A DNA stretch of 64,000 bases. Source: Thermodesulfobacteriota bacterium. Its GTDB lineage: Bacteria; Desulfobacterota; RBG-13-43-22. The stretch spans positions 24,632 through 88,631 of the forward strand of contig JBEKPQ010000003.1 in NCBI GenBank assembly GCA_049520575.1, read 5' to 3'. The notes below the pieces were generated by a model. That model searched no databases. It saw nothing but the letters and a program-made list of their open reading frames with translations, and was not told the origin of the DNA. A program made the translations under genes and the position numbers. Numbering within the stretch: position 1 is the first letter of the stretch; each line of letters begins with the position of its first letter. This document shows positions 24,914-44,810 of the stretch, piece by piece.

Positions 24914-25492
24914 ATGGGAAACTTAATACTGTTGGTCCTATTGACCTATCTGGCCGCCTCGGTCAACTTTTCCATACTTTTATTTAAGATCCTCGGTAAA
25001 GGTGACCCAAGAAGTCATTTCAGCGGCAATGCCGGAACGGCGAACGTCACCAGACAACTGGGCAAACTCTGGGGCCTGCTGATCCTCCTGCTCGACATCG
25101 GACGGGCCGTAGCCTTTGCCCAAATCGGAGTTTGGTTTCTGCCTGCTCCCTTAGTGCCTTTATTAGGTCTGGCCCTCGTGGTTGGGAACCAAAAGCCATT
25201 GTTTCACGGGTTCCGAGGCGGAAAGGGGGTAGCCGGCTACCTGGGTTTCACCGCTTTGATCTCCCCCCTTGCAGCCGGAATATCTTGCCTGGTTTGGGTC
25301 CTGGTGTACGGGTTTTTCCGGGTGACCTTCATCGGATCGTTTTTTATGATTACGGTTCTGGGCCTGGGGACCGTGATGCATTACGCTTGGGCATGGTCGG
25401 TGGTTACCGCTGCTGGTTTGACCATGGTTTTAATCTTCCTGGCCCATAAATCCAACATTGCGGGTATCCTTGGTCAGCGCAGAAAAGGTTGA
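24914..25492 (+). CDS. PlsY-family acyl-phosphate:glycerol-3-phosphate acyltransferase.
   Basis: 192 aa polytopic protein carrying the PlsY signatures SGNAGTAN and FRGGKGVAG. Preceded by a GGAGG RBS. Confidence 0.7.
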   Translation: MGNLILLVLLTYLAASVNFSILLFKILGKGDPRSHFSGNAGTANVTRQLGKLWGLLILLLDIGRAVAFAQIGVWFLPAPLVPLLGLALVVGNQKPLFHGFRGGKGVAGYLGFTALISPLAAGISCLVWVLVYGFFRVTFIGSFFMITVLGLGTVMHYAWAWSVVTAAGLTMVLIFLAHKSNIAGILGQRRKG

Positions 25493-25524
25493 CCTCGCCC
25501 ATCGTCTATGATACTTTTTTTTGC

Positions 25525-26784
25525 ATGAAATTTAAATTGATCTATCCAAAATGGAAGAAGCTTAAGGGCCAGACCGAATTCCATCTTCCCCCTCACGGCC
25601 CCGTGGTCTTTGCCGCCACAATACCCAAAGAGGTGGAAATCGAATTCGTCGATGAAAATCTGGAAACCATCGATTTCAATGATTCAGCGGATTTGGTCGG
25701 GATCTCCATGATGCTGACCAGCCAGGTGAAAAGGGGCTGGGAAATTGCCGATGAATACCGGAAAAGGGGTATCCCGGTCATCTGCGGCGGCATTGCCGCC
25801 ATGCTTCATTCCGAAGAGACTTCCCAACACGGCGACGCCGTCTTCTTGGGGGAGGCGGAAGGAAGGATGGAACAGGTCTTTGATGATTTCCGGAATAACC
25901 GGCTTCGAAAGGTCTATGACTACTTGATGGATTTTCCTCCCATCGCTTCGGTCGGTACGGCCCGGCGGGATATCCTGAAGCGGGAGCTTTACAACTACAA
26001 AGGCCTCCAGATGGTCGACCTTTTTCATGCCTCGCGGGGATGCCGATTTAACTGCTATCCCTGCTGTGTCAGCTTCCTTGGAGGACGACAGTTCCGGCCC
26101 CGCCCCATGGACAAGGTCGTGGAGGAACTGGCAGCCATAGAAAACAACCGCCTCTTTATTGTTGACAATTCACTAGCCCAAGACAAAGCCTGGGAAAAGC
26201 AGCTCTTCCGGGAGATGATTCCTTTAAAAAAGAAATGGTGCTCCCACCCCATTGAAGACGATGATGAGGTCCTCAATCTGGCGGCCCAGGCCGGGGCCTG
26301 GTATGTTTATCAGGCGATCTTCGATACCTCGGACTTCATCCGCAACCGGATCAAACGTTACCACGATTTCGGTATCGGTGTCGAGGGAACCATCCTCCTG
26401 GGACTCGACCACCATACGGAGGACTATATACGCCGTCTGTTCGAATTCCTCCAGGAGGTCGAATTGGACCTGGCGGAATTTACCGTCCTGACTCCTTTCC
26501 CCCACACGCCAGCCTTCACTGACCTGCAACGGGAAGGGCGGATTCTATCCTACGATTGGAACGACTATACCTGCGACAAGGTCGTCTTCCAGCCCAAACA
26601 CATGAGTCCGGAACGCCTTCAGGAATTATACGACCAGTCGTGGGAAACCTTCTACCGTGAAAAACCCCAGTCCTACCGGATGTTCGAACTGTTCAAACGG
26701 GTCATTGCTAAGGAAATGGCTGACGGGACCTTCCGGCGTTGGCAGCCCAAGGTCAAACGGAAATTCGGCCGGGTGGGGATATAA
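25525..26784 (+). CDS. B12-binding radical SAM protein, second copy. Probable start MKFKLIYP at 25525.
   Basis: Cobalamin-binding N-domain (DLVGISMM...VICGG) plus rSAM CRFNCYPC (CX3CX2C). Confidence 0.8.
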   Translation: MKFKLIYPKWKKLKGQTEFHLPPHGPVVFAATIPKEVEIEFVDENLETIDFNDSADLVGISMMLTSQVKRGWEIADEYRKRGIPVICGGIAAMLHSEETSQHGDAVFLGEAEGRMEQVFDDFRNNRLRKVYDYLMDFPPIASVGTARRDILKRELYNYKGLQMVDLFHASRGCRFNCYPCCVSFLGGRQFRPRPMDKVVEELAAIENNRLFIVDNSLAQDKAWEKQLFREMIPLKKKWCSHPIEDDDEVLNLAAQAGAWYVYQAIFDTSDFIRNRIKRYHDFGIGVEGTILLGLDHHTEDYIRRLFEFLQEVELDLAEFTVLTPFPHTPAFTDLQREGRILSYDWNDYTCDKVVFQPKHMSPERLQELYDQSWETFYREKPQSYRMFELFKRVIAKEMADGTFRRWQPKVKRKFGRVGI

Positions 26785-26832: not shown

Positions 26833-27696
26833 TCACAACTCCTTAATCCATAGAAGAGGATGGAGGCGGCCCTGGGATATATCCTGCATTTGAATACCCC
26901 GGATTTCCTCACAGACAGCCCCTTGGTCATCGATAATCCAGGCATTAAAAAAAAACTGATTCTTTTCTACTCCCGTCGGAAAAACCCGGCCGGTATATAA
27001 ACCATTTTTTTTGGTTTTCTGATGAATGATCCTTTTTTCAATACCTGTTGGAAATAGGACATACTCAGTAAACCGTTGCCCCCAGATGCAAGCCACCTGA
27101 AGGGCGGCATCCAGAGGAAAGAGAGAACCGAGTCGATCATCCTCTTTTCCGCAGTCACCGCCGGAAAGATAGCCTGAAGCCTCTTCGGGCCAAAGAGAAA
27201 CCGGGCCGATGATATTTTGAAAAGCCTTCCCGAAAGGGATCAGTCCGGGGTAAACTAATTCTTTTGAAACCAAGATATCCGGTCCTTTAGGATTTTCTTT
27301 GTCCGCCAATAGCGGTGAAGCACCTGGAAAAGAATCGGCCTGAGAAAATTCCACCCGGGCATGCTCCAGGTTGCGGCTGATGCCACCGGTTTTTGATCTC
27401 ATCGAAGTCATCAGCCGTGTGGAAATACCCCCCTTGGGGGTTTGATCTATTTCGACGACAACCGGCAGATGGTGCATTTCCGGATGGATTATCAGAAAAC
27501 GGGGAAACCGGGCCTTGGTCAAACAAACCATATCCCAATTGGAAAAATGATCATGAACAACCTTGGCCAGGACATTCAAAGCCTCTGTAGCCGGCAAAAC
27601 ACACCGGCCTTCAAAGTGATGATCCAATAAATAGTCGCCGACTTCGATTTCCAGAGGACAGCGCATTTTTCCATTTAGCCGGGGAAGGATTTCCAA
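26833..27696 (-). CDS. Standalone polyketide-synthase-type dehydratase (PS-DH, double hot-dog). Start uncertain: the ORF overlaps the upstream thioesterase by 22 nt.
   Basis: PKS DH active-site signature LLDHHFEGRCVLPATE (HxxxGxxxxP); ~287 aa. Confidence 0.6.
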   Translation of the reverse strand: MEILPRLNGKMRCPLEIEVGDYLLDHHFEGRCVLPATEALNVLAKVVHDHFSNWDMVCLTKARFPRFLIIHPEMHHLPVVVEIDQTPKGGISTRLMTSMRSKTGGISRNLEHARVEFSQADSFPGASPLLADKENPKGPDILVSKELVYPGLIPFGKAFQNIIGPVSLWPEEASGYLSGGDCGKEDDRLGSLFPLDAALQVACIWGQRFTEYVLFPTGIEKRIIHQKTKKNGLYTGRVFPTGVEKNQFFFNAWIIDDQGAVCEEIRGIQMQDISQGRLHPLLWIKEL

Positions 27697-28160
27697 AGAG
27701 CAATCGTTTGGGGGTCTATGGCCACGGGAAGTCCCTTAGCATTCAGGGCGCAATGTTTGGTATATCCGATGCAAACGATCCGGTCGGTTTCCGCCTGGGT
27801 GATCAGGTAATCAAACTGCAAACGGACCCGTTCCAGGAGAGTCGGCCGGGTGTGGATCAGCATGACATCATCATAATACAAGGGAGAATAATATCCGATC
27901 CTTAAATCGATGATGGGATAAACAAAGCCGCTCGCTTCAATTTCTTTATAGGGATAGCCGAAGTCGCGCATCAAAGAGGTTCGCCCGAATTCAAAAAACC
28001 GCAAGTAATTGGCATGATAAACCACCGCTGAACGGTCCGTATCGGCATATAACGTTCTATAGGTGGAGCGATGCCAGATCAAACCAGTGGAGCGGTCGCG
28101 GATGAAGTTGGGATTGTTATTGAAAGGTTCGGGTCGGAAAGGTTTGGGACGCATCTTCAC
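27675..28160 (-). CDS. 4HBT-fold acyl-CoA/acyl-ACP thioesterase (YbgC-like).
   Basis: YADTDRSAVVYHANYLRFFEFGRTSL matches the 4HBT thioesterase consensus. ATGA overlap with the KS stop indicates translational coupling. Confidence 0.7.
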   Translation of the reverse strand: MKMRPKPFRPEPFNNNPNFIRDRSTGLIWHRSTYRTLYADTDRSAVVYHANYLRFFEFGRTSLMRDFGYPYKEIEASGFVYPIIDLRIGYYSPLYYDDVMLIHTRPTLLERVRLQFDYLITQAETDRIVCIGYTKHCALNAKGLPVAIDPQTIALWKSFPG

Positions 28161-29422
28161 ACCCCCTTGAAAATGATACAGCAGTTCGTCCCTCCAAACC
28201 CAAAGGCATTGGAAAGGGCCAATTCATAATGATGCCGACGGACTTCGTTGGGCACCACATCGATATCCGAAAATTCTGGATCAGGAAGATGATTGATGGT
28301 CGGCAATATACACCCTCTTCCCATGGCTTCGATGGTCAAGGCCGCTTCAATAGCTGCGGTGGCCCCCAAGGTGTGGCCCAATTGGGACTTATTGGAGGAT
28401 ATGGGGATTTTTTCCATGGCCTTGCCGAACACTTCGCGCAGACATTTTATCTCCGTCCGGTCCCCTTTGGGCGTAGACGTACCGTGGGCATTAATATATT
28501 GGATATCTCTCGGTTCCAAGCCTGCATCCTCAATGGTTTCTCTGATGGCCCGGACAATGGTGACGGGGTTGGGACTGGTGTAATGATAAGCGTCCGATGT
28601 CCAGCCCACACCCAAGACCTCGGCCCGGGCTTTGAGACCATAAGCCTTAATGACTTCTTCCGCCGCCAGAACCACTGCGCCCGCTCCTTCGGAAAGGACA
28701 AACCCTTTACGGTCAACACTGAAAGGGCGGGAGGCCTGGGCCGGATCCGTAAAGGCCCTATCTTTTGGGTGGACCTTGATCGTGGCATTCATATTGGCAA
28801 AGCCGTGAATCAATTCCGGAAGGATAGGGGCATCGGCCCCGCCGGCCAACACGAAATCGCAATCCCCGTCCCGGATCATTCTGGCCCCTATGCCGATGGC
28901 GTGGTTCCCCGAGGCGCAGGCCCCTTGGGGGGAAAAGATGGGACCGGTGAATTTTAGGAGCATGCCGGCCTTACCACCAGGTACATTGGCGCATAGATTG
29001 GGCAGCAGATAAGGGCTTACCCGGAGAGGTCCCCGTTGTTCCAGGTCCTGCATGGCAATTCGAAAGGCCTCCGGCCCATTTAAGGCGGAACCGATCAGGC
29101 AGGCCATTCGTGGGGAAATCTGTTCATCCATGGTAATCCCGGCGTTTTGCAGGGCTTCCTGACAGACAGCCATGGTCATGATTACAAAACCGGCGTTCCA
29201 GTTGTACACTTCTTTGGCATCGATATAATCCAGCTCCAAGGGATTCCAGTCCGGGATTTCTCCGACAATGTTGCAGGCCGATTCCACCTGACACCGGGTC
29301 ACCTTCCGGAACCCGGCTTCCCCTTTAACAGCCCGCTTCCAGGTCTTCTCAAAGGTGCTGCCCAGGGGTGTGGCCATCCCGTAACCGACAACAAACACTC
29401 TTCTGTTTTTAGGTGCCTTCAT
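28157..29422 (-). CDS. Beta-ketoacyl-ACP synthase (FabB/FabF-like KS).
   Basis: Active-site Cys in GACASGNHA; His motifs NAHGTSTPKGD and GHTLGATAAIE. Confidence 0.9.
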   Translation of the reverse strand: MKAPKNRRVFVVGYGMATPLGSTFEKTWKRAVKGEAGFRKVTRCQVESACNIVGEIPDWNPLELDYIDAKEVYNWNAGFVIMTMAVCQEALQNAGITMDEQISPRMACLIGSALNGPEAFRIAMQDLEQRGPLRVSPYLLPNLCANVPGGKAGMLLKFTGPIFSPQGACASGNHAIGIGARMIRDGDCDFVLAGGADAPILPELIHGFANMNATIKVHPKDRAFTDPAQASRPFSVDRKGFVLSEGAGAVVLAAEEVIKAYGLKARAEVLGVGWTSDAYHYTSPNPVTIVRAIRETIEDAGLEPRDIQYINAHGTSTPKGDRTEIKCLREVFGKAMEKIPISSNKSQLGHTLGATAAIEAALTIEAMGRGCILPTINHLPDPEFSDIDVVPNEVRRHHYELALSNAFGFGGTNCCIIFKGV

Positions 29423-29494
29423 GGTTCAGTGCACATCCTTTATGACTTTACCAGTTTCAACTATCCGGTGCGAGGATATTTATTCTGGCTTCAA

Positions 29495-30745
29495 TTATAT
29501 CAGCCTGCGTAAAACCAGACAGGCATTGCACCCGCCAAAGCCCAGTGCATTTTTCAAGACAAATTCTCCGCTTAATTTTCTGGCTCCCTCGGCCACACAG
29601 TCCAATTCAACATCCGGATCAGGGAGATAATTAATCGTAGGAAGCAAGGTCTCTTTGAGCAAACCTTCCATGGTGAAAATGGCCTCGATGGCGCTGGAAG
29701 CCCCCATGGCATGGCCCATTTGGGATTTATTGGCCGATACCGGAGGAAGTCGCTTTCCGAAGATATTATGCAGGGCATCAACCTCCACCTTGTCCCCTAC
29801 CTTGGTTGAAGTGGCGTGGGCGTTAATGGCATCGATATCCGAAGGTTTAATCCCGGCCTGGGCAATAGCCAGCTCCATAGACCTTTGAACCGTTTCCAGA
29901 TTGGGGGCAACGAAGTGCTTGGCATCCGAGGTCATTCCAAACCCGGCCAATTCAATGGGCGCTTTAAGTCCATGGGCGGCGGCGAATTCCGCTGAGGCAA
30001 TGATAATACAGGCGGCCCCTTCGGAAACCACGAACCCCCTGCGATTTAAGGAAAAAGGCCGGCTGGTTTTTTCGGGCGGTTCAGGCGGCTGGCCTTCTTT
30101 GGGATGATAAGCGCCGTTCATGGTGGCAAAGCCGGCAACAATCGGTTCAACCAAGGGAAAGTCAACCGCTCCTCCGATGACCACATCAGCCAGACCCTGA
30201 CGCAGGAGCATTGCCCCTGTAATCAATGAGGTGATGCCCGTTGCGCAAGCTGTGATGGTGGAAAAGATGGGTCCGGTGGCCCCGGTGAAAACAGAGACCC
30301 GTCCACCGACCATATTGATGCATGAGTTGGGGTTGGTAAAGGGATGGGGCATTTTCCCTTGGGAGACCATCAGCCGGTCCGCCTCCAACACGGCATCCAG
30401 CCCGCCGATAGCGCTGCTGAAGGTGACGGCCACGCGGGGGGCGATCTCGGGTGTAATCACCAAACCGCTTTTTTGCAGTGCGCGGTGGACGACCAGCAGG
30501 GCGTGGGGGAAAATAGGGGAAGTCCAATGAGCCATTTCCCGGGGCTGCAAAAAAGGAAAAGGTCTGGTATCAAGGGGCGGAACTTCTCCGGCCACTCTAA
30601 CCGGAAAATCGTGGGGCAAGGGAAAACGGGTTAAGGGACCTATCCCCGAGTCCCCGCGAACCGCCTTTTCCCACTGGGTTTCCCATTCCGTACCTAAAGG
30701 GGAAACGGCATCATACCCTAAAATGACTGCTTTTTTTGGTTCCAT
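29495..30745 (-). CDS. Beta-ketoacyl-ACP synthase, second copy with the catalytic Cys retained. Probable start MEPKKAVILGYD.
   Basis: TACATG active-site Cys; NAHATSTKVGD and GHAMGASSAIEA His motifs. Confidence 0.85.
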   Translation of the reverse strand: MEPKKAVILGYDAVSPLGTEWETQWEKAVRGDSGIGPLTRFPLPHDFPVRVAGEVPPLDTRPFPFLQPREMAHWTSPIFPHALLVVHRALQKSGLVITPEIAPRVAVTFSSAIGGLDAVLEADRLMVSQGKMPHPFTNPNSCINMVGGRVSVFTGATGPIFSTITACATGITSLITGAMLLRQGLADVVIGGAVDFPLVEPIVAGFATMNGAYHPKEGQPPEPPEKTSRPFSLNRRGFVVSEGAACIIIASAEFAAAHGLKAPIELAGFGMTSDAKHFVAPNLETVQRSMELAIAQAGIKPSDIDAINAHATSTKVGDKVEVDALHNIFGKRLPPVSANKSQMGHAMGASSAIEAIFTMEGLLKETLLPTINYLPDPDVELDCVAEGARKLSGEFVLKNALGFGGCNACLVLRRLI

Positions 30746-30921
30746 AAAGAGTACCCAGATTAAAAAAACCATTTGAAGAGAGAAAAATCTTTAAATTTAT
30801 GCTCTCGGGATCACCTAATGTTGAGGAGACCAGGACAGCGCTTTTTCTCTTTTCGATTGAATCGATGATGAGATCGGATTTGAATGCCGGAAAAAGCAAA
30901 CTACCGAAGTCCCACCCATAA

Positions 30922-31920
30922 TCACCAGGGGATGAAATGATACAGCTTGGCGAACATTTCATAAACTTCGATCCAGTTCTGCAAATCTTCAGTCGACCGA
31001 ATATGTTCTCTTTTATTGACCATAACCCAGCTCATATGGGCCGCCCCGTCCTTGCAGGTGGAGCAGTCCCGGCTGGCCGAAGTGCAACAGCGGTGGACCG
31101 TCTTTAAATCGGAAGCCCAGCGGATAAAATGAATCAAACGGTGGGGCTGGGGATTCCTATCGTCCAAGGATTCGGTTACAGAGGGACATTCTTTCCAGCC
31201 GAAAGGACGGCCCATCATGGTCCCTGTGGTGATGATTTGATGGTAATATTTGCTGGAAATAACCGTTTGAGGATACCGGTCCAGCATTTCATCTAGTTCG
31301 TGACGCAAGGCCGTTAGCTCTTTTTCCCGCCAGGAAAAACCTTCCACATGCTCGTCGTTTGACAAAAGCTGAAGATGGACCTTCAATCCAATATCGGCGA
31401 TTCTTTTGATGACCGGTTCAATTTTACCCACCTGCCGCGGTGTGATGGTGTACAGATAATAAGTGTAGGGGTCACCGGTATAATGCTTACTGGAAATCGC
31501 AAAGGTGTCTCTCCCCCTTAGAACCTTTTCATCTTCAGGGCTGCCCCAGAGAGAAATCCCGACCATCATATCAGGGAACCGATCCCGGGGCACTTTTATC
31601 AAGCCGTTGGTGGCGCAATAGGTCGGCAGCCGATGATAAAAGGCCTCAGCCCTGTCCAGGAAAAGCGTCGGCTCTCCGCCGATCAATATGGCCAGATTGA
31701 CGCCCCGCTCCTTTTCCCGGTCAATAAAGGCCTCCCACTTTTTTAGATCCATTTCTTCACGGGCCGCCTGGTGTTCGTTGGAGGAAAAGAAAAAACACCC
31801 CTTACAGCGCAAATTGCATTGGTTGGTAACATCATAGATAGAACTGCGAATATTTAATTTGGAAATCCTCCGATAGCGTTCGTACCAGGATGAATCTAAT
31901 AATGAACTGACAGTTTTCAT
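30922..31920 (-). CDS. Radical SAM protein with a SPASM/twitch-like C-terminal Cys cluster. Probable start MKTVSS at 31920; the longer ORF-track form would overlap the upstream paralogue by 100 nt.
   Basis: CNLRCKGC (CX3CX2C), GGEPTL, C-terminal CCTSASRDCSTC. Paralogous to the adjacent gene. Confidence 0.7.
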   Translation of the reverse strand: MKTVSSLLDSSWYERYRRISKLNIRSSIYDVTNQCNLRCKGCFFFSSNEHQAAREEMDLKKWEAFIDREKERGVNLAILIGGEPTLFLDRAEAFYHRLPTYCATNGLIKVPRDRFPDMMVGISLWGSPEDEKVLRGRDTFAISSKHYTGDPYTYYLYTITPRQVGKIEPVIKRIADIGLKVHLQLLSNDEHVEGFSWREKELTALRHELDEMLDRYPQTVISSKYYHQIITTGTMMGRPFGWKECPSVTESLDDRNPQPHRLIHFIRWASDLKTVHRCCTSASRDCSTCKDGAAHMSWVMVNKREHIRSTEDLQNWIEVYEMFAKLYHFIPW

Positions 31921-31973
31921 AAAGTCGTCCCTTAAAATCTTCTTTTTGGTTTTCTGATTTTTCGGTCCGGGGT

Positions 31974-33044
31974 TCAGGTCATCGGGGGGCTGACCGGGGC
32001 CGGACAGAGATTCTCCCCTTTGGGATACCCCATCACCCACACCGCCAGGTACGTATCCACATAATCCAGCCAAGCCTTGAAGGTGTCCAATTGACCGGCA
32101 TGACGAAAAAGACGGGCGGTGACCACAGCTGAACCTGAGGCATAATGCCGGCAGTCGTTACAATCGGTATCCGGCACACAGCAGGCCACCGACCGGTCCC
32201 ATTTTAAATCCGTTCGGTACTGTCGAAAGGACCGTCCCAGGCCAATGTCCTGAGAGGGGTTTTGTCGAGGGTACTGGCAGGCAAAAAGGTCATGCAAACT
32301 GCCGCGGTGGGTATGGGCAACGGCATTATAGGCCGAGAACAAAACCTGCTGAGGATATTTCTCCAGGAGGGCGATCATATTGTTTCTGGTTTGTTCCAGT
32401 GAATCTTCATTATGGCGTAAAGGTCCCTTATAGCCCACCGGGGAGGAAAAAACATTGAAGGTCAACTTACAATCCTCGGCCACGAGGCGTTCGGCCACCT
32501 CCCAGACCTCTCCGATATTGCTCCGGGTGAAGGTATAAACAAAAACGGCCCGCGGGTCATTCCGATAGTTTTCGATTTGTTTTTTTAAAAGATCCTTGGC
32601 TTTCCGCACCCGAAGGCTGGTTTCATCGTTGCCCCAGACGGAAATATGGATTTTATAGCCGACCGATTCCGAAATTTTTTTCAATCCGTTGGTGGCTATG
32701 CTGCCCAGCGGCATTTCCTGAAAACAAACCTCCAACAGTTCCGGAACGAGCGAGGGTTCGGCCCCGGCCAGAACCACATAGGTGATCCCCCGTTTTTTTT
32801 CGGTTTGCATCAGTTCCCGCCAGGCTTCGACCTGATTGTTTTCAACGGCAAATTGTTTTTCCCCCTCATAATAATAACAGCCGTCGCAGCGGAGATTGCA
32901 GCGATTGCTCATGTCATAGGTGGATTCCCGCAGGAAAAAATATTTTCGGACTTTCTCCCACCGCTGTCTGACTTCCGGATGGTCAAGCAGTTCGGAAAAT
33001 TTCGGTTGGTCTGGTTCCAAGGATGGCTGATGATTCATGGTCAT
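31974..33044 (-). CDS. Radical SAM protein with a SPASM/twitch-like C-terminal Cys cluster; paralogue of the previous gene.
   Basis: CNLRCDGC (CX3CX2C), AGAEPSL, C-terminal CCVPDTDCNDC. Confidence 0.75.
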   Translation of the reverse strand: MTMNHQPSLEPDQPKFSELLDHPEVRQRWEKVRKYFFLRESTYDMSNRCNLRCDGCYYYEGEKQFAVENNQVEAWRELMQTEKKRGITYVVLAGAEPSLVPELLEVCFQEMPLGSIATNGLKKISESVGYKIHISVWGNDETSLRVRKAKDLLKKQIENYRNDPRAVFVYTFTRSNIGEVWEVAERLVAEDCKLTFNVFSSPVGYKGPLRHNEDSLEQTRNNMIALLEKYPQQVLFSAYNAVAHTHRGSLHDLFACQYPRQNPSQDIGLGRSFRQYRTDLKWDRSVACCVPDTDCNDCRHYASGSAVVTARLFRHAGQLDTFKAWLDYVDTYLAVWVMGYPKGENLCPAPVSPPMT

Positions 33045-33102
33045 GGCGAATGAGTTCCTCTCAATTGCTCTACCCTAGCATCGAGATCAGGCTGCCGGAT
33101 TC

Positions 33103-33518: not shown

Positions 33519-33593
33519 TTTTCATCTTGATAAAAAGTTTCTCCAAAAGAAAAGATCTTATATTTTAAAACAGATAGTTTGGAAATAGGAAGT

Positions 33594-35825: not shown

Positions 35826-35828
35826 GAT

Positions 35829-37076: not shown

Positions 37077-37159
37077 ACCAAAACGATAAAAAAGCCGGGG
37101 ATGGCCCAGATCCAAGGCGTCCAGGACGAAGGCCCGTCCCGGCCGGATATCGCGAGCCC

Positions 37160-37927
37160 TTGACCATTCCCCGATGGATTAAAGGTCCGGTTGATCTTTT
37201 GGTCACCCTATTTTTATGGGTCTATTTTACCTTTGGCTATTTCATTTTATTCTCTCCCTTTTATCTCTTTTCCTTCCTGTTCTCTGATAACCTCGAAAAT
37301 TCTTTTCAAAAAATAAATCACCGATTTTTCAAATCGTTTTTTATACTCCTGCGAATCATCACCCCCCGTTTAAACATCCGCATTGACGACGACGTTTGTG
37401 CCATTCGGTCTTCCGTTATTGTCTGTAATCATCTTTCATACCTCGATCCGATCCTTATGGTTTCTTTGTTTGAAAAACAAAAGACGGTCGTTAAAAAAAC
37501 ATTTCTGAAAGTACCCGTTTTCGGATGGGTGTTAAAAAAATCCGGGTATTTATTTTCAACGAAAGAGGAGACTTTTACCGCCCTCATGCTGGAACGTATC
37601 AAGGATATGGAAAATTATCTGTCATCAGGGGGGAATTTATTCGTCTTTCCGGAAGGTACGAGAAGCCGAGACGGGAAGATCGGGCGGTTAAACAAAGGGG
37701 CCTTTACCATTGCCAAGCGATATCATGCTCCGATTCAGGTGTTGATGATCAACCAAACGAATAAGTTATTAAAGCCGGGCAGATCCTTATTAAATACCTG
37801 TGTTCCGATTACGATTGAAGTAAAACGGATTGGAAGCATTCCTCCGGAATACACCAGCGATGGCTTATCGATTCAGAGAGTGATGGAACAGGTCAGGCAG
37901 TTTTTTGAACAGCAGCTCGAGCCATAG
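37160..37927 (+). CDS. PlsC-like lysophospholipid/1-acylglycerol-3-phosphate acyltransferase. Start codon is non-ATG (TTG at 37160); there is no in-frame ATG before the catalytic motif.
   Basis: HX4D motif CNHLSYLD and FPEGTRS block; N-terminal TM segment. Confidence 0.7.
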   Translation: MTIPRWIKGPVDLLVTLFLWVYFTFGYFILFSPFYLFSFLFSDNLENSFQKINHRFFKSFFILLRIITPRLNIRIDDDVCAIRSSVIVCNHLSYLDPILMVSLFEKQKTVVKKTFLKVPVFGWVLKKSGYLFSTKEETFTALMLERIKDMENYLSSGGNLFVFPEGTRSRDGKIGRLNKGAFTIAKRYHAPIQVLMINQTNKLLKPGRSLLNTCVPITIEVKRIGSIPPEYTSDGLSIQRVMEQVRQFFEQQLEP

Positions 37928-37947
37928 TTTTGCCTGCCTATCCGTAT

Positions 37948-37983
37948 TTCTCCTTGACCCTGCCTTTTTCTTGTCCTATACTT
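37948..37983 (+). promoter_or_regulatory. Promoter C of the conserved family: TATTTCTCCTTGACCCTG (-35 at 37954-37959), 17 nt spacer, TATACT (37977-37982). Upstream of the FAD oxidoreductase.
   Basis: Consensus hexamers plus the shared extension. Confidence 0.6.
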
Positions 37984-38126
37984 TTTTTGATCCAAAAGCC
38001 TCTTTGGGGTGCGTCGGGCAAAGCCTGGAAAATCCAGTCGGTTGAAAAGCGAGCCTGAGTTAGCCGACCGTCGGAACCGAGTTTGTTCTAAATGCCGGTA
38101 ACTGCATAGATGAAGCGAAAAATTCA

Positions 38127-39614
38127 ATGCCTACACTTCAACAGGTCCAGGAAAAGGTTCTGATCATCGGCTCGGGTATCGGCGGCCTGAGCACGGGCAT
38201 CATTTTAGCCAAGCTCGGTTTTGATGTCACCGTCATCGAAAAGAATCGACAACCCGGCGGGATGATGCGCAGCTACGCCCGCCGGGGGGTGCAATGCAAC
38301 GTTGGTCTGCATTACCTAGGCGCCCTGGATCAGGGCCAGGTTCTGCGCCGCTGTTTCGATTTTTTGGAAATTTCGGATCGGCTTCCGCTGGTTCGGATGG
38401 GGATCGAGGCGCCGGTGGACCGTTATCTTTTCACCGACAACCATCTTGGCCTCGATCGTTTCGATGTGCCCACCGGTTTTGAGGCTTACCAGGCCGGTCT
38501 GAATGCCGCCTTTCCAACCCAAAAAGCGCAAGTGGCCGCTTTGATGACCCTGCTACGCCGCGGCGCCGACCAATTTGACCGACTGTCTTTTCTATACGCC
38601 GATCAGCCGACTGAATACTGGTTCGATCAAATCGAGCCGCTGGGGGCGATTTTCGACCGTATCGGCTGTTCCCCCGGGCTGAGGGCGGTCTTCGGCCTGC
38701 CGACGGTCTTGATCGGGGTGCCGCCCGCGGTGTGTCCTCAGGTCTATCACACCATGACCCTGGGCAGCTACCTTTTGTCTGCCTGGCGCTTGGAGGGGCA
38801 CGGCGCTACTATGGCCGACGTCTGCGCCCAGCGCCTGGCCTCCTTCGGAGGAGGATTGCGTACCGGAGAGGCGGTAGTCGGCATTCGAACGGCCGACGGC
38901 TGCGTGCGGGGTGTCACCCTGGATTCGGGTGAAACCCTTGACGCCGCCATCGTCATCAGCACCATCCACCCCAAGAGGATGATCGAGTTACTGAAGCCCG
39001 ACGCCGTTAAAGCCTCCTATCGTCGGCGGATCATGGGGTTAAAGGATACCGCCGGCATGATGGCGGTGCACGCCCTGGTGCCGGCTGACCGGCACCCCGT
39101 AATTTCACACAACCTGTTCGTGGTGCAGGCCGATTCCAACGGCGACGTCCGGGACCTGATCTTTCTGCAATTGCGCTCCAGCGGCGCACCGGGGCAGAAC
39201 CTGCTGACAATGATCACCTCCGGCCATGATGAACTATGGCTGGCCTGGCAGCAGACCCGCTCCGGCCAGCGCGGTCCGGATTATCTCAAAAAGAAGCAGG
39301 ATCTGGCTCATGAAATCATTAGAAAAACAGAAAAGATAATGGGTCCCTTCCATGGGCTGGAGATCCTCGACGTCTTTACACCTTTAACCATCCGGGATTG
39401 GGTCAACAGCCCCCAAGGATCGGCCTACGGTGTAATGCGATCAAACGACCAAATGCTTTCAGCCGCATTGTTGAATCGTACGTCATTGCGAGGCCTCTTT
39501 TTGGCCGGCCAGAGCGTATTGTCCCCAGGTATTTTGGGCACAATTTTAGGTTCTTTCTCAACCGTGAAATTTATCGTGGGTTCAGAGCGGTTCGAGCGAG
39601 AGGTTCGAATATAG
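38127..39614 (+). CDS. FAD/NAD(P)-binding oxidoreductase of the phytoene-desaturase (CrtI/CrtD-like) family.
   Basis: N-terminal dinucleotide-binding VLIIGSGIGGLSTGIILAKLGFDVTVIEK...PGG; ~495 aa, typical for CrtI-like enzymes. Confidence 0.75.
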   Translation: MPTLQQVQEKVLIIGSGIGGLSTGIILAKLGFDVTVIEKNRQPGGMMRSYARRGVQCNVGLHYLGALDQGQVLRRCFDFLEISDRLPLVRMGIEAPVDRYLFTDNHLGLDRFDVPTGFEAYQAGLNAAFPTQKAQVAALMTLLRRGADQFDRLSFLYADQPTEYWFDQIEPLGAIFDRIGCSPGLRAVFGLPTVLIGVPPAVCPQVYHTMTLGSYLLSAWRLEGHGATMADVCAQRLASFGGGLRTGEAVVGIRTADGCVRGVTLDSGETLDAAIVISTIHPKRMIELLKPDAVKASYRRRIMGLKDTAGMMAVHALVPADRHPVISHNLFVVQADSNGDVRDLIFLQLRSSGAPGQNLLTMITSGHDELWLAWQQTRSGQRGPDYLKKKQDLAHEIIRKTEKIMGPFHGLEILDVFTPLTIRDWVNSPQGSAYGVMRSNDQMLSAALLNRTSLRGLFLAGQSVLSPGILGTILGSFSTVKFIVGSERFEREVRI

Positions 39615-39935: not shown

Positions 39936-39949
39936 TATCATGAAAAAAA

Positions 39950-40165
39950 TTGATAAAACGAATTGAATTTAGTATAAGAAAAAATATCGATAACCCCTTG
40001 AATCCTATTTTCATAGTAATAAAAAATCCTCGGCTAAAAAACCGATGGATGAATGGGACGGCTCATCTTTTTATAGACCATGAGCTGGACAGCATTGATG
40101 CTTTGGATTGGTTCGCTGCGAATGATAGATTGGCCTTTTTCAGCAACCTGTTAAGGGAAAAATGA
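39950..40165 (+). CDS. Possible short ACP-like protein (71 aa), translationally coupled to the downstream ACP by an ATGA overlap. AT-rich.
   Basis: Contains LDSIDALD, resembling an ACP Ser-attachment motif. Its C-terminus overlaps a 23 nt sequence repeated at 4513-4535, which lowers confidence. Confidence 0.3.
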   Translation: MIKRIEFSIRKNIDNPLNPIFIVIKNPRLKNRWMNGTAHLFIDHELDSIDALDWFAANDRLAFFSNLLREK

Positions 40166-40440
40166 TGAATCAACTCCTGCAAGAACTAAAACGAAAAATC
40201 GTGGAAGAGCTCCAGCTCGAAGATGTGAATCCGGATGAACTGGCCGATGACACCCCCTTCTTTGATGGAGGTCTGGGTCTGGCTTCCGTGGATCTATTGG
40301 TCCTGGTGGTCCTGGTGGAAAGAGATTATGGGGTTGAGATCTTCAGTAAGGAGTTAGGCGAGAAGGTCTTTATAACCATTTCCTCTCTGGCTGAATATAT
40401 TAAAGACAACCGGAAAAAAAGGGAGAAGGGCCAGATTTGA
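40162..40440 (+). CDS. Acyl carrier protein (ApeE/F-like).
   Basis: 92 aa; GLGLASVDLL phosphopantetheine site. Confidence 0.7.
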   Translation: MMNQLLQELKRKIVEELQLEDVNPDELADDTPFFDGGLGLASVDLLVLVVLVERDYGVEIFSKELGEKVFITISSLAEYIKDNRKKREKGQI

Positions 40441-40481: not shown

Positions 40482-42119
40482 ATGAAAGAAAAGCCATGGC
40501 TTAAACATTATGAAAGCCAAGTCCCCCATTCCATTGCTTATCCGGAGAGTTCCATCCAACGATTCCTTCTGGACACGGTGACCAACCACCCGGATTATAC
40601 GGCCATCTCCTTCAACGAGATCGACATAACTTACAAGGACCTGAATGAGAGGGTGAACCGGTTGGCCCAGGCCCTCCAGAAACGCGGGGTGGAAAAAGGA
40701 GACCGGATCGCCTTTCTTTTGGTGAACTCCCCGACTTATGTGATTGCCTTTTTTGCGGTCCTAAAGCTTGGGGCTATTGTGGTCAATATGAGTGTGGGAA
40801 TTCAGGGAGAAGAACTGACCCGCTGTTTGAACGACTCCGGGGCCAAGATAGTCGTCACCCTGGATCTGTTCGCCCAGAATCTCTACCAGGTGATTGGCAA
40901 AACCGGGGTGAAAACCGTCATCCTTCACTCCATATTCGGGCTGGAAAAGAAAATTTCCCTGAAAGAAGGGGCCCCTCACCCTCAGATATTCCAAAAGGTT
41001 TTATCCTCAGTCCAAACGGCAGAAGAGCCGGCGATTCGGGTTGCTTCCCAAGATGTGGCGGTGCTTCAGTATTCCAGCGGTTCCACCGGAGCACCAAAGG
41101 CGGCAACCTTGACCCACTTCAATATCGTTGCCAGTGTACTCCAGTCCGACGCCTGGATGGGAGTGGAGGAAGCCGGAAATGCAGCGGTCTTATGTGTGAT
41201 TCCTTTTTTCCACGTTTTCGGGATGTCGGCTTGTCTCCTCGTTTCCGTATTTAAAGGATATCGGATGGTCCTCCTCCCTCGAATTGACCCGATGGACATC
41301 CTCTCCTTGATGAAGATCAATGAGCATTACCAGCCCATTTCCTTCCCGGTCGTACCCAGCTTATGGGCGGCCATCCTGTCCCTACCTTCGGAGGTTGTCG
41401 GGCCCCAGCTTTCTTCCGTTCAGGTGGCTACCAGCGGAGGGGCAGCCCTCCCTGCCTGGGTTCATGACCGTTATGAAGAACTCACCGGCAGAAAAATCAT
41501 CGAGGCCTATGGGCTCTCGGAGGCCTCCGGAGCCACCCACTTCACGCCTTCACCCAGTGGCGGACCCCGAGACTCCATTGGGTTACCCTCGCCGGACACG
41601 GAGGTCAGGATCATGGACATAGAAACAGGCCAGAGAGAATGCGCAGTGAGTGAGATCGGCGAACTTGTAGTGAAAGGGCCACAGATTATGCAGGGCTACT
41701 GGAATAACCAGGACCTCACCTCAACAGCTCTGCGTAACGGATGGCTTTACACCAAGGACTTGGCTCGAATGGATGAACAGGGGTTTTTCTACCTGGTGGA
41801 CCGAAAAGATGACTTGATCATCTCCAGCGGATTCAACATCTACCCCAGTCAGATCGAAGCCGTCCTTGAAAAGCACCCCAAAATCGAGGAGGCTGCCGTA
41901 ATCGGAGTCCCTGACCGGATCAAAGGGCAGGCAATCACGGCAGTGATCGCTTTAAAAGAAGGCTTAGAAGGGGATAAAGAAGAATTTCTAAAGTACTGCA
42001 AAGAAAATATGCCTGATTATCGGGTGCCCAAAACTTTCCTCATCCGACAGGAAATTCCCAGGGATCCGGCAGGAAAGATCTTGAAGAGGATCTTAAGGCA
42101 AGAGATTAAGGCCGTTTAA
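40482..42119 (+). CDS. AMP-dependent acyl-CoA/acyl-ACP synthetase.
   Basis: AMP-binding motifs YSSGSTGAPK and GYGLSE; 545 aa. Confidence 0.85.
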   Translation: MKEKPWLKHYESQVPHSIAYPESSIQRFLLDTVTNHPDYTAISFNEIDITYKDLNERVNRLAQALQKRGVEKGDRIAFLLVNSPTYVIAFFAVLKLGAIVVNMSVGIQGEELTRCLNDSGAKIVVTLDLFAQNLYQVIGKTGVKTVILHSIFGLEKKISLKEGAPHPQIFQKVLSSVQTAEEPAIRVASQDVAVLQYSSGSTGAPKAATLTHFNIVASVLQSDAWMGVEEAGNAAVLCVIPFFHVFGMSACLLVSVFKGYRMVLLPRIDPMDILSLMKINEHYQPISFPVVPSLWAAILSLPSEVVGPQLSSVQVATSGGAALPAWVHDRYEELTGRKIIEAYGLSEASGATHFTPSPSGGPRDSIGLPSPDTEVRIMDIETGQRECAVSEIGELVVKGPQIMQGYWNNQDLTSTALRNGWLYTKDLARMDEQGFFYLVDRKDDLIISSGFNIYPSQIEAVLEKHPKIEEAAVIGVPDRIKGQAITAVIALKEGLEGDKEEFLKYCKENMPDYRVPKTFLIRQEIPRDPAGKILKRILRQEIKAV

Positions 42120-42125: not shown

Positions 42126-43049
42126 ATGATAAAGACCTTACTTTTCAAAACGGTCACCAAAGTTGCCTTACTTCTGGGTTCATGGCCCCTTCGATTTTTC
42201 GCCTGGTGGATATCCACCGGATACTTTTTCTTTCGTCCCTCCAGGAGGAAACTCAGTATCCAGCTCTATCAAGCCATCTTTCCCGAGCGTAAGGGCTGGT
42301 ATCATCTTTACTGTGCCTGGCGCCAGTTTCATTCCTTTGCGGCCACTTACGGAGACCGGATGGATTTTGAAAGCAGGAAAGAGGTCTTCACCTCTACGCA
42401 AGGGAGAGAAGGAATATTAGAGGCGAATAAAAGGGGTACCGGGGGGATTATCCTCATGTCCCATCTGGGCAGTTATGAGGTGGCAGCCAGCGGTTTTCAG
42501 AAATATGGCCTTAAGCTCCTGTTGATCATGGGCGAAAAGGAGGCCAGGCTGGTAGCCCGTGATCAGCGCCAGGCCCTGAAAGACCGGGGAATCTCCATTC
42601 AGGTGGCTACGGGACAAGGAGATTCTCTCATGGGAGGGCTGGAGGCGATCAAGTTTATCAGGGAAGGGGGATTCGTTTCTCTGGCCGGCGATCTGATCTG
42701 GACCGAACAGCGCTCATTTTTAACGGTAAAATTCTTTGGCCGGGAGGTGGTCCTGGCCTCGGGCCCCTATCTGCTGGCCCTGGTCTCCGGGGCGCCTCTC
42801 TTTATTTTGTTTACCTTTCGAGTTAAAAGAGGAAGACATCAGGTCATTGTCCTTCCTCCCAGACAGGTAACGGCCTCTATCCGTTCTGAAAGAGACAAGG
42901 TCCTTCAGGAGAGCGCCCAGGCCTATGCCGAGGCTTTGGAGGAGATGGTGCGCCGACATCCTTTTCAGTGGTACATCTTTGAGCCCTTCTTTCAACCTCT
43001 TCCGGCTAAATTAGGAAATTCGTCGATCGGGCTTAAAGGTCAAATTTAA
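42126..43049 (+). CDS. Lipid A biosynthesis acyltransferase family protein (LpxL/HtrB-like).
   Basis: 307 aa with an N-terminal TM segment. Conserved block GGIILMSHLGSYE is typical of PF03279-type acyltransferases. Confidence 0.65.
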   Translation: MIKTLLFKTVTKVALLLGSWPLRFFAWWISTGYFFFRPSRRKLSIQLYQAIFPERKGWYHLYCAWRQFHSFAATYGDRMDFESRKEVFTSTQGREGILEANKRGTGGIILMSHLGSYEVAASGFQKYGLKLLLIMGEKEARLVARDQRQALKDRGISIQVATGQGDSLMGGLEAIKFIREGGFVSLAGDLIWTEQRSFLTVKFFGREVVLASGPYLLALVSGAPLFILFTFRVKRGRHQVIVLPPRQVTASIRSERDKVLQESAQAYAEALEEMVRRHPFQWYIFEPFFQPLPAKLGNSSIGLKGQI

Positions 43050-43055
43050 AATAAG

Positions 43056-44810
43056 ATGGGAGACAACGAACCCAATATGGATGATAAACTTATGATGAAC
43101 GCCCTGGCCGCTGGATATGCCAGGATTGTAGTCTGGGCCGATATTCTTGATCAGATCAATGTCTACCCGGTGCCGGACGGTGATACGGGCCGGAATCTTG
43201 TCATTACTCTGAGTGCCTTGAATAATAATTCATGGACACCGGAGGCATTAATCCGTGAAGTCCTGCTCTCGGCCAGGGGGAATTCGGGAAACATCGCCTC
43301 CCGGTTCCTCTCCGGGTTTCTCCAGTGCCATACCCTTGCAACCTTGGCCGCATCAGCCGAAACGGGCCGTGATTCGGCTTACCGGGCCGTTGCCAATCCT
43401 AAACCGGGAACCATGCTTTCTCTCTTTGATGACCTGGTGACCTCTCTGAAGAAAAACTCTCCTGAAGATTCAGGTAGGTGGGTGCAAGCGGTCATCCAGG
43501 ATTTGGAAGAGGCGGTAAAACTAACCACCGAACAATTGCCCGAACTCAAGGAAGCCGGAGTGGTCGATGCAGGGGCCCTGGGTATGCTGGTCTTCCTCGA
43601 TCCCTTGTTGAACACCCTGGCCGGTCAAGTGGTGGAGCAGTCCCTGTTCATCGACGAACTCAAGGAAGTCCTCCAGCTTTCTTCCTCCTGGCAGGACCGG
43701 ACTTATCAGGGCTACTGCCTCGATGTGGTGCTCAAGGTGGAAGGGGATGAGCAAGAGGCGATGAAACAGATGTCGAATATGGGTGAATCGTTGGTGGCCA
43801 TGCCCGGGGGAGATTGGCTCAAGGTACATCTCCACGCCCCGGACCGGGAAAGGGTCCGGCAGGAACTGGCGGCCCTGGGATCCATCATCAGTTGGTCCGA
43901 AGATGATCTGTCCGAGCAGACCCTGCGGTTCAATGAGCCCAGAAAAAATCAGTGCATCCATATCATGACCGACGGCGCAGGTTCCATCACCCGGGACCTG
44001 GCTCAAGGGCTGGGCATCACCCTGCTGAACAGCTACATCACCGTGGGTCAGGTCTGCCTTCCTGAAACTTATGTGGACGCCGCCCGTCTCTTTGAGGCCA
44101 TGAGGAACGGGGCCAAAGTTTCCACAAGCCAGGCTTCCGATGCCGAACGCCTGGAGTGTTATCATAAGATCATGAAGACCTTCGATCGGGTTCTTTACCT
44201 CTGCGTAGGCTCTTTCTACACCGGGAATTACCAGGCGGTTATGAAATGGAAGGCCGACCATGACCCTGAAAACCGGATGATCGTCATAGATACCGGCGTG
44301 GCCTCCGGGAAACTCGGGTTGGCGGCCAAGGCTTCGGCCGAACTGGCCCTTCAGGTCGGCAACCCTGCGGAGGTCGTGGCCTTTGCCGAGGACGCCGTTC
44401 AAAAGGTTCAAGAATATATTTTTCTGGACAAACTGCAATTCCTGGCCGCCGGCGGCCGCATGTCCAAGACCGGGGCCTTTTTTGGGGATGTCCTTCACAT
44501 TAAACCCATCGTTAGCCCTTTCCCGGATGGGGCGCGAAAGATGGGGATTGTGAGAAGCACTCAGGAACAGGTGAAATTCGCCTTCCGTTGCCTGGAGCAA
44601 GAGCTCTCCAAAGATCGGAAATTCACACTGCTTCTCGAATACTCGGATAACCGGTACTGGCTGGAAAAAGAGATCAAACCGGAGATAGAGCGCAGATTCC
44701 CTTCGGTGAAAGTCTTTTTACAACTCCTCTCCCTCACCTCCGCCGCCCACATGGGGCCGGGTTCTTGGGGTATGGCCTTTCTTCCTGACACACTAAAAGA
44801 AGTGGAATAG
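43056..44810 (+). CDS. DAK2-domain/DegV-domain fusion protein of the fatty acid kinase FakA/YloV type.
   Basis: N-terminal INVYPVPDGDTGRNL matches the Dak2/FakA signature (LNVYPVPDGDTGTNM). 584 aa with a DegV-like C-terminal half. Confidence 0.7.
   Translation: MGDNEPNMDDKLMMNALAAGYARIVVWADILDQINVYPVPDGDTGRNLVITLSALNNNSWTPEALIREVLLSARGNSGNIASRFLSGFLQCHTLATLAASAETGRDSAYRAVANPKPGTMLSLFDDLVTSLKKNSPEDSGRWVQAVIQDLEEAVKLTTEQLPELKEAGVVDAGALGMLVFLDPLLNTLAGQVVEQSLFIDELKEVLQLSSSWQDRTYQGYCLDVVLKVEGDEQEAMKQMSNMGESLVAMPGGDWLKVHLHAPDRERVRQELAALGSIISWSEDDLSEQTLRFNEPRKNQCIHIMTDGAGSITRDLAQGLGITLLNSYITVGQVCLPETYVDAARLFEAMRNGAKVSTSQASDAERLECYHKIMKTFDRVLYLCVGSFYTGNYQAVMKWKADHDPENRMIVIDTGVASGKLGLAAKASAELALQVGNPAEVVAFAEDAVQKVQEYIFLDKLQFLAAGGRMSKTGAFFGDVLHIKPIVSPFPDGARKMGIVRSTQEQVKFAFRCLEQELSKDRKFTLLLEYSDNRYWLEKEIKPEIERRFPSVKVFLQLLSLTSAAHMGPGSWGMAFLPDTLKEVE

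Follow-up and report, generated by a model that had tools for sequence, protein, structure and literature searches.

A predicted single-chain fatty acid kinase and cluster-bound acyltransferases in a 'ladderane-type' lipid island of an uncultured Thermodesulfobacteriota bacterium

How might a bacterium attach the product of a specialized lipid cluster to glycerol? The question is raised by a 64,000-nucleotide stretch of contig JBEKPQ010000003.1 (positions 24,632 to 88,631; assembly GCA_049520575.1) from an uncultured Thermodesulfobacteriota bacterium, the whole of which we call the window. An island of about 24 kb (approximately 22.07 to 46.3 kb of the window, as judged from an open reading frame [ORF] listing and Pfam/NCBIfam scans) encodes a fused protein with Dak2 and DegV domains, a PlsY-like acyltransferase, and a PlsC-like acyltransferase. 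A first-pass annotation had proposed that these three proteins form a dedicated acyl-phosphate route: a thioesterase would release the unusual acyl chain, a FakA-like kinase would re-activate it as acyl-phosphate, and product-specific acyltransferases would install it on glycerol-3-phosphate. The three ORFs exist at the positions it gave, and independent gene calls on the metagenome contig (JGI 3300037993) place them identically:

43056..44810, plus strand: single-chain kinase fusion, 584 amino acids (aa) (Pfam/NCBIfam matches, PDB alignments)
24914..25492, plus strand: PlsY-family acyltransferase, 192 aa (G3P_acyltransf, 2e-31)
37160..37927, plus strand: PlsC-type (LPLAT) acyltransferase, 255 aa (Pfam Acyltransferase, 8e-21)

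The motifs that had been cited are also there: the FakA signature INVYPVPDGDTG in the fusion, SGNAGTAN and GGKGVAG in the PlsY-like protein, and HX4D in the PlsC-like protein. Because each lies inside a significant domain match, they are not chance occurrences. As predicted from its gene content, the island is an aryl-polyene/'ladderane'-type cluster for a type II fatty acid/polyketide lipid. Rattray et al. (2009; PMC2649909) found clusters of the 'ladderane-type' for type II fatty acid synthesis in anammox bacteria and in some deltaproteobacteria alike. The analysis below indicates that the kinase and acyltransferases of this cluster probably load its unusual fatty acid into membrane lipids.

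A candidate fatty acid kinase in one chain

What kind of protein is the fusion? It is laid out as FakA_N (the Dak2/DhaL ATP domain) at about residues 10-190, the FakA middle domain at about 219-290, and FakB/DegV at about 300-580, with matches to Dak2 (7e-20), FakA-like_M (1e-8), and DegV (6e-39, over profile positions 2-279 of 280). With the YloV/FakA model, the protein aligns only over model positions 3-302 of 530. Since the DegV profile is matched whole while the YloV/FakA model stops at position 302, we read the protein as FakA_NL-FakB, that is, FakA_N plus FakA_L joined to a complete FakB, with FakA_C missing. A match to FakA-like_C (PF13684) is absent from the fusion, and the complete DegV domain takes the C terminus. 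Perhaps the C-terminal half is instead a divergent FakA_C? This was ruled out, since both the DegV profile and the FakB fold are matched over their full extent, with the tunnel-forming parts for the fatty acid included. The FakB counterpart here is a fused DegV domain, not a separate, exchangeable subunit.

Everything that a FakA-like kinase should need, in domains, conserved residues, and predicted fold, is found in the fusion. The Mg and nucleotide ligands of Staphylococcus aureus FakA (SaFakA) are N32, D38, D40, T41, N82, and D185 (PMC9136124), and they correspond to N35, D41, D43, T44, N76, and D171 of the fusion. In alignments to solved structures, C221/H258/H260 of the fusion correspond to the catalytic triad of SaFakA (C240/H282/H284) and of Streptococcus suis FakA (SsFakA; C244/H289/H291), and this middle-domain triad is invariant in the alignment of the fused family. 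In the DegV half, T357, T389, R468, and H565 align with FakB T61, S93, R170, and H266. We take T61, S93, and H266 to be the carboxylate site described in the 4X9X study; R170, which equals Arg173 in FakB1, is the essential FakB Arg. Across 67-104 fusion representatives, with identities as low as 23%, each of these functional positions from the literature is either invariant or conserved in at least 90%.

The predicted structure agrees domain by domain. In an AlphaFold2 model of the fusion (pLDDT 86, pTM 0.75), the C-terminal half matches complete FakB/DegV structures with template modeling (TM) scores of 0.80-0.89, and the N-terminal domain matches FakA_N with a score of 0.81. Superposed as a whole on S. 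suis FakA, the model reaches a TM score of only about 0.3, since the two proteins arrange their domains differently, and the per-domain matches alone are informative.

The FakA/FakB systems of Firmicutes (S. aureus, S. suis; PDB 7W7H, 7RM7, 6W6B, and 4X9X) share with the fusion the Mg/nucleotide residues of the DhaL-like ATP domain, the Cys-His-His triad, and the DegV-fold Thr/Ser(Thr)/His carboxylate site with its essential Arg. However, they consist of two chains and have a FakA C-terminal docking domain, whereas the window fusion is one chain with a complete FakB in that place. Moreover, Firmicutes Fak is a scavenging system with several exchangeable FakBs, while the fusion belongs to a Gram-negative anaerobe and is encoded in a biosynthetic cluster beside a thioesterase.

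Could such an enzyme work without FakA_C? The only known role of FakA_C is to recruit FakB, and FakA_NL lacking this domain is active, with the Km for FakB rising from 0.09 to 0.99 uM, about 11-fold (PMC9136124). This role would be redundant in the fusion because FakB is covalently tethered. We consider it likely that the fusion is a fatty acid kinase, one whose DegV domain would bind the fatty acid and whose remaining domains would phosphorylate it. It is also a natural test of the idea that the FakA C-domain only recruits FakB.

Is the architecture peculiar to this island? When representatives of 50%-identity clusters were searched exhaustively, 361 matched the fusion at E<1e-30; 103 among the best 150 of these are full-length, and Dak2 and DegV are both present in all 67 full-length representatives scanned. 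The fused Dak2-FakA_M-DegV architecture is thus widespread in databases and not island-specific. Distant examples come from metagenome-assembled genomes (MAGs) of Bacteroidota, Chloroherpetonaceae/Chlorobiota-related bacteria, Calditrichota, KSB1, Marinimicrobia, Aminicenantes, and Acidobacteriota, where the databases label them 'DegV family protein', 'DAK2 domain fusion protein YloV', or 'fatty acid kinase'. They have the same three domains, the same invariant residues, and a link to PlsY, but they are only 23-30% identical to the window's fusion, occur in a non-cluster context, and adjoin a PlsY that keeps His92, a residue taken up below; the window fusion's own clade is found within the radical-SAM/ketosynthase lipid cluster, paired with a thioesterase and an LpxL-like acyltransferase.

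In three of the five such genomes inspected, a PlsY gene directly follows the fusion, again in a non-cluster context. As independent neighbourhood evidence, these fusion-then-PlsY pairs in KSB1, Aminicenantes, and Marinimicrobia indicate that the fused kinase type feeds PlsY, and they suggest an undescribed single-chain Fak/PlsY operon that is widespread in Gram-negative phyla. We found no description of natural FakA-FakB fusions in the literature, and a 2023 review still terms Fak a Gram-positive strategy. In Aminicenantes (CP070627; locus L056, 7001-9522) and KSB1 (L057, 5001-7629), the gene after the fusion is a canonical His92 PlsY. In Marinimicrobia (L059, 5001-7444), the stop of the fusion abuts the start of PlsY, and a PLD-type phospholipid synthase gene comes next.

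Genomic partners of the kinase and of the PlsC-like protein

Which genes keep company with the kinase? In the window, the following genes lie around it or, in the case of TE_a, supply the island's other thioesterase:

40162..40440, plus strand: acyl carrier protein (ACP; PP-binding domain), first gene of the ACP/FadD-like/LpxL-like/kinase operon
40482..42119, plus strand: FadD-like long-chain fatty acid AMP ligase (Pfam/NCBIfam family matches)
42126..43049, plus strand: LpxL/HtrB-family (Lip_A_acyltrans) acyltransferase (family matches)
44878..45576, minus strand: 4'-phosphopantetheinyl transferase (PPTase; family matches) for the three ACPs of the island; it adjoins the fusion across clade A, defined below
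45798..46244, plus strand: hotdog thioesterase TE_b (4HBT, YbgC/FadM-like; family matches), the proposed releaser of free acid for the kinase
27675..28160, minus strand: hotdog thioesterase TE_a (YbgC/FadM family; TIGR00051 80.9 against a cutoff of 68.7)

The intergenic gaps from the ACP through the FadD-like and LpxL-like genes to the fusion are 41, 6, and 6 nt, and the FadD-like ligase probably loads the adjacent ACP (or CoA) with free acid. A scan for promoters and terminators around this operon gave a site count not above that of shuffled sequence.

We scanned a genome collection with the fusion, obtaining 41 loci, and mapped the island proteins onto them with flanks of 10 kb. The relatives are MAGs labelled Thermodesulfobacteriota, Desulfobacterales, or Syntrophales, and they form two clades. 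In clade A, the fusion is 62-89% identical to that of the window and the usual order is (ACP)/FadD-like/LpxL-like/fusion: 20 of 21 loci carry the LpxL-like gene on the strand of the fusion, in 14 it lies within 150 nt upstream of the fusion, and in most the FadD-like gene precedes the two. Clade B fusions are 42-48% identical, with the usual order TE_b/fusion/(GT2, LpxL-like)/KS3/PlsC-like. Here 17 of 19 loci have TE_b immediately 5' of the fusion, in most cases separated from it by no more than 35 nt, and both exceptions are truncated loci. Because this TE_b-then-fusion pair is near-universal in clade B, the proposal that a thioesterase releases the acyl chain before its re-activation gains support, as a predicted route.

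All 40 Desulfobacterota-type loci hold the fusion inside this cluster type and never in a housekeeping context; cluster-type genes surround it in every locus with enough flank, in a varying order of modules. The FadD-like ligase with its ACP, the LpxL-like enzyme, and the thioesterases adjoin the kinase more closely than does the PlsC-like gene. In the closest relative, L004, the fusion is 89% identical and is flanked by the same hybrid-cluster protein (HCP) and LivK genes, yet a 13.6-kb block (window 26833-40440) containing the ketosynthases, two radical-SAM genes, the dehydratases, and the PlsC-like and CrtI-like genes is missing. Since L004 lacks this 26.8-40.4 kb block and retains the flanks, we conclude that the island is modular.

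The PlsC-like protein had been assigned to the acyl-phosphate route together with the kinase. The neighbourhoods do not bear this out: the gene travels with the ketosynthase KS3, which it follows directly in at least 11 loci, and this is a general feature of the cluster type. In two loci (L053 and L139), it adjoins the PlsY-like gene. The protein carries HX4D (NHLSYLD) and EGTR (FPEGTRS) motifs, and its residues 13-244 align with residues 7-232 of Thermotoga maritima PlsC (5KYM; 1.4e-13), including the N-terminal membrane-association helices. It scores 73.8 bits with TIGR00530, below the 1-acylglycerol-3-phosphate acyltransferase threshold of 102.95. Aryl-polyene-type clusters usually carry an LPLAT. 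We conclude that the PlsC-like protein is a cluster-specific LPLAT and not specifically a component of an acyl-phosphate route.

The PlsY-like enzyme and the proposed route

The PlsY-like protein passes PF02660 (109 bits) and fails the TIGR00023 equivalog (89.4 against a cutoff of 137.2). The first-pass annotation had taken the acyltransferases to be product-specific, and this part of it gains support: the PlsY-like and PlsC-like proteins both belong to cluster-bound subfamilies that score below the NCBI housekeeping equivalog thresholds. A metagenome scan from the PlsY-like side gave 80 loci, 39 of which reach 6 kb or more. Wherever the neighbours of a PlsY-like gene can be recognised, the locus belongs to this radical-SAM/ketosynthase cluster type, and in 27 of the 39 long loci the gene ends a co-directional operon with the order radical-SAM/radical-SAM/ketosynthase/ketosynthase/TE_a/PS-DH/(PPTase)/PlsY-like. 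Clearly, the PlsY-like protein represents a cluster-specific subfamily, linked most tightly to the thioesterase. Apart from the three PlsY genes beside the non-cluster fusions, neither the window nor the 1.5 Mb of fetched loci yielded a canonical PlsY, PlsX, or FakA.

Does the enzyme retain what a PlsY needs? We aligned it to Aquifex aeolicus PlsY (5XJ5), for which a structure-function study has assigned residue roles (PMC5700162), and counted residues over 115 and 80 orthologs. The window protein retains every residue of the glycerol-3-phosphate pocket (Ser35, Arg45, Lys104, Asn180, Ser142, and His177). Both this pocket and the GGKGVA phosphate-hole loop are kept in at least 113 of the 115 orthologs. 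With the Aquifex enzyme (5XJ5; TIGR00023) the subfamily therefore shares the PF02660 fold, the phosphate clamp for glycerol-3-phosphate, the 2-OH ligands, and the GGKGVA loop.

These components can be arranged in a route. TE_b and/or TE_a would hydrolyse the finished acyl-ACP to free acid. The DegV/FakB domain of the fusion would capture this acid, and the tethered FakA_N and Cys-His-His domains would phosphorylate its carboxylate with ATP, the tether standing in for the FakA C-domain. The cluster's PlsY-like enzyme would then use the acyl-phosphate to acylate sn-glycerol-3-phosphate at position 1. A second activation, by the FadD-like ligase and ACP, would provide a thioester donor for a second acylation by the PlsC-like and/or LpxL-like enzyme, after which the GT2 enzyme may glycosylate the product. 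We infer the order of these steps, as well as the presence of housekeeping copies elsewhere in the genome.

Parts of such a scheme are known from other systems. In Enterococcus faecalis, the thioesterase TesE frees acids that Fak must handle (PMC12288450); there, as proposed here, thioesterase-freed acids are re-activated by Fak, but as a homeostatic side reaction. An engineered cascade of FakAB-PlsY and FadD-PlsC achieves position-specific acylation (PMC13400652), with separate kinase and ligase activations leading to sn-1 and sn-2 as in our scheme, but it is an in vitro design. In the window's island, all four enzyme types and a thioesterase are encoded in one natural biosynthetic cluster. 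On balance we lean, with modest confidence, towards the full dedicated route of thioesterase, fused kinase, acyl-phosphate, and PlsY-like enzyme. A more specific form is tentative and would, in our judgment, more probably fail than hold: that the kinase and an Asn92 PlsY, with the thioesterase, the FadD-like/ACP pair, and the PlsC-like and LpxL-like enzymes, make up a product-dedicated, PlsX-independent assembly line that places a radical-SAM-modified acid of the 'ladderane-cluster-type' at defined glycerolipid positions in anaerobic Desulfobacterota. It would belong to this same doubtful proposal that the change of His92 to Asn signals adaptation of the PlsY to an acyl donor of a non-standard kind.

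Several observations weigh against the dedicated route. Only His92 and Thr41, among the side chains of PlsY, contact the acyl-phosphate; of 7,288 PlsYs, 97.8% have His and 0.5% have Asn at position 92, and the H92N variant of the Aquifex enzyme has 6.9% of its activity left (PMC5700162). In contrast to the Aquifex enzyme, the cluster-embedded, sub-cutoff PlsY-like proteins have lost this residue: the window protein has Asn at position 92, as do 111 of 115 orthologs and, in an independent set from metagenomes, 70 of 73; none has His there. Thr41 is Ala in the window protein and variable across the family. The three PlsY genes beside non-cluster fusions all keep His92. The route's PlsY step had been taken for granted, and it is supported in part: the glycerol-3-phosphate pocket is intact, while acyl-phosphate use by the Asn92 enzyme becomes a conjecture because the family has lost His92. 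Gene order adds to this. The PlsY-like gene ends its own operon in 27 of 39 loci, and only 5 of the 39 show a fusion at a distance of 10 kb or less; most fusion loci, in turn, lack a PlsY-like gene over that distance. What constantly accompanies the fusion is a thioesterase and the LpxL-like gene, not the PlsY-like gene. Finally, the kinase activity of every fused Fak is itself a prediction.

How firm, then, is the link between kinase and PlsY-like enzyme? The two genes lie 4-18 kb apart in the window and in L004, L017, L019, L022, L083, L105, L139, and L071/L072. We conclude that the link is recurrent (about ten contexts) but not obligatory within readable distances, and that the modules shuffle independently. 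The connection made by the first-pass annotation is thus supported by the fusion-PlsY pairs of three phyla and weakened by the separate modules of the cluster, where a fusion is near 5 of 39 PlsY-like loci.

Might the fusion serve salvage or editing instead? Together with the FadD-like/ACP pair, it would then recapture exogenous acids, or acids released by an editing thioesterase, and return them to general lipid synthesis or supply the cluster with starter units; its acyl-phosphate would pass to an ordinary PlsY or, via PlsX, to ACP, and the PlsY-like enzyme would work independently. The independently shuffled modules agree with this, as do the housekeeping-like, non-cluster contexts of the fusions in other phyla and the position of the FadD-like and ACP genes directly 5' of the LpxL-like gene and the fusion, which resembles a starter-loading pair. 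Activation of free acids by a ligase is the usual Gram-negative way (PMC10146087), and the Fak of E. faecalis deals with the acids that a thioesterase sets free. However, salvage does not readily explain why 40 of 40 Desulfobacterota-type loci hold the fusion within the cluster type, and a thioesterase gene so close before the fusion, with translation apparently coupled, suggests a committed step of a pathway and not scavenging. We regard salvage or editing as unlikely. Less probable still is that the PlsY-like, PlsC-like, and Fak proteins are simply the organism's sole copies, located beside a lipid cluster by chance. A fused Fak beside PlsY does appear to be a general pair in KSB1, Aminicenantes, and Marinimicrobia, but housekeeping enzymes should not fall short of the equivalog cutoffs as these do (89 versus 137 bits for the PlsY-like protein, 74 versus 103 for the PlsC-like protein), nor have Asn where 97.8% of PlsYs, and the three non-cluster PlsYs, have His. 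The terminal position of the PlsY-like gene in a radical-SAM/ketosynthase/thioesterase operon in 27 of 39 loci also speaks against it, and the absence of the PlsC-like block from L004 would be unlikely for an essential gene. We consider this explanation very improbable.

The chemistry could also differ from that proposed. The Asn92 enzyme might not use acyl-phosphate, or might acylate an acceptor other than glycerol-3-phosphate; alternatively, acyl-phosphate might be consumed elsewhere (e.g., by the LpxL-like enzyme), or the fusion might phosphorylate something other than a carboxylate. The family-wide loss of His92 with a variable Thr41 is what one would then expect, and it accords with this that the LpxL-like gene is the constant neighbour of the fusion and that most PlsY-like loci lack a nearby kinase. 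Yet the subfamily shows no variation in the GGKGVA phosphate-hole backbone loop or anywhere in the glycerol-3-phosphate pocket, and the carboxylate-binding and phosphotransfer residues of FakB are all conserved in the fusion. LpxL-family enzymes are known to use thioester donors, and the fusion-then-PlsY pairs of other phyla tie this kinase type to PlsY. A different chemistry is therefore rather improbable in our estimate.

If the dedicated route exists, it would extend Fak from Gram-positive fatty acid scavenging, as reviews describe it, to de novo assembly of specialized lipids, and the pathway product is what one would expect to find bound to the DegV domain. No product route has been assigned to the 'ladderane-type' clusters of Desulfobacterota and anammox bacteria since 2009, and the candidate glycerol-loading enzymes give starting points. 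Were the assembly-line form also true, Fak would not be a Gram-positive speciality, and there would be a first mechanistic handle on how the products of these long-orphan clusters enter membranes. The Asn92 subfamily can be used to probe donor recognition by PlsY.

Two sets of loci show other arrangements of these genes. A compact operon ending in an Asn92 PlsY is seen, for example, in L085, L095, L123, L125, and L138 (3600-10600), among L076-L138; in L138, the cluster stops at the PlsY-like gene and is followed by genes for a PfkB kinase, an amidohydrolase, and cytochrome bd. L071 (61-5600) and L072 (935-6500) have a fusion of the distant type (22-24% identical to the window's), then a PlsC-like gene, then an Asn92 PlsY-like gene. 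It seems that a different branch of the kinase family was recruited into the same cluster type there.

Other genes of the island and its surroundings

The remaining genes of the island fall into three operons, which are listed here with the genes that border the island; except where another source is given, assignments are from domain matches:

20125-21753: hybrid-cluster protein gene, one border of the island
22067..26784, plus strand: B12-radical-SAM / GT2+DUF2062 / PlsY-like / second B12-radical-SAM-like operon (Pfam/NCBIfam)
22067-23575, plus strand: B12-radical-SAM enzyme
23579-24814, plus strand: GT2+DUF2062 glycosyltransferase
25489-26784, plus strand: second B12-radical-SAM-like enzyme, CX3CX2C kept
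26833..33378, minus strand: 'ladderane-type' core operon (ACP, two radical-SAM enzymes, two ketosynthases, TE_a, PS-DH-like)
33103-33378, minus strand: core-operon ACP
31974-33044 and 30922-32073, minus strand: core-operon radical-SAM enzymes
29495-30772 and 28157-29422, minus strand: core-operon ketosynthases
26833-27696, minus strand: PS-DH-like dehydratase
33579..39614, plus strand: ApeI-like / ApeP-like / FabG / ACP / KS3 / PlsC-like / CrtI-CrtD-like operon
35559-35825, plus strand: ACP upstream of KS3
35829-37076, plus strand: ketosynthase KS3
38127-39614, plus strand: CrtI/CrtD-like FAD desaturase
from 48811: two SDR genes and a Liv-type ABC transporter, the other border

By Pfam and NCBIfam, these co-located genes include every type by which a 'ladderane-type' or aryl-polyene-like cluster is recognized; the cluster is known here from genes alone. 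For chain building there are three ACPs, three FabF-type ketosynthases, dehydratases (ApeI-like, ApeP-like, and PS-DH-like), and a FabG ketoreductase. These are joined by four radical-SAM enzymes, the CrtI/CrtD-like flavin desaturase, the GT2+DUF2062 glycosyltransferase, and the PPTase; the lipid-assembly genes are those for the two hotdog thioesterases, the FadD-like AMP ligase, the LpxL-like, PlsY-like, and PlsC-like enzymes, and the kinase fusion. The gene order of the 22067..26784 operon recurs in L004 and L045-L050, and the synteny of the core operon is kept in 27 metagenome loci.

Known ladderane-type and Ape clusters share with the island several FabF paralogues, dedicated ACPs, two radical-SAM enzymes, a B12-radical-SAM enzyme, and a phytoene-desaturase-like enzyme, as well as ApeI/ApeP-like dehydratases, a hotdog thioesterase, an AMP ligase, a GT2 enzyme, and LPLAT-type acyltransferases. 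In the literature that could be searched, we found no mention of a fatty acid kinase, DegV, or PlsY in ladderane, aryl-polyene, or Desulfobacterota clusters.

All three FabF-type ketosynthases (the pair at 28157-30772 and KS3) have a Cys-His-His active site, which rules out a chain-length-factor role for one of them. Unlike the KS/CLF-like pair (ketosynthase/chain-length factor) recently proposed for the anammox homologues, the island has no ketosynthase of the chain-length-factor type. The radical-SAM set comprises two SPASM-less enzymes and two with a B12 domain, and all four contain CX3CX2C; the intact motif rules out that the second B12-radical-SAM enzyme is degenerate. As listed, the two minus-strand radical-SAM ORFs overlap by 100 nt (31974-32073). 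The JGI gene calls start the downstream one later, so its true start probably lies downstream of the TTG at 32073.

Three features of the window lie outside the island. At 2001-4000, the GC content falls sharply to 0.34, compared with about 0.49 elsewhere, and both GC skew and AT skew are strongly negative; a minus-strand ORF of 552 aa in this segment has weak PilZ and methyltransferase matches, and the segment may be a foreign insertion. Upstream of the island, at 7283-8221, is an AbiTii-family (abortive infection) gene that seems to have no connection with the lipid genes. An ORF of the nitronate monooxygenase family (FabK-like) at 56407-57264, about 8 kb downstream of the island, could encode an enoyl-ACP reductase II.

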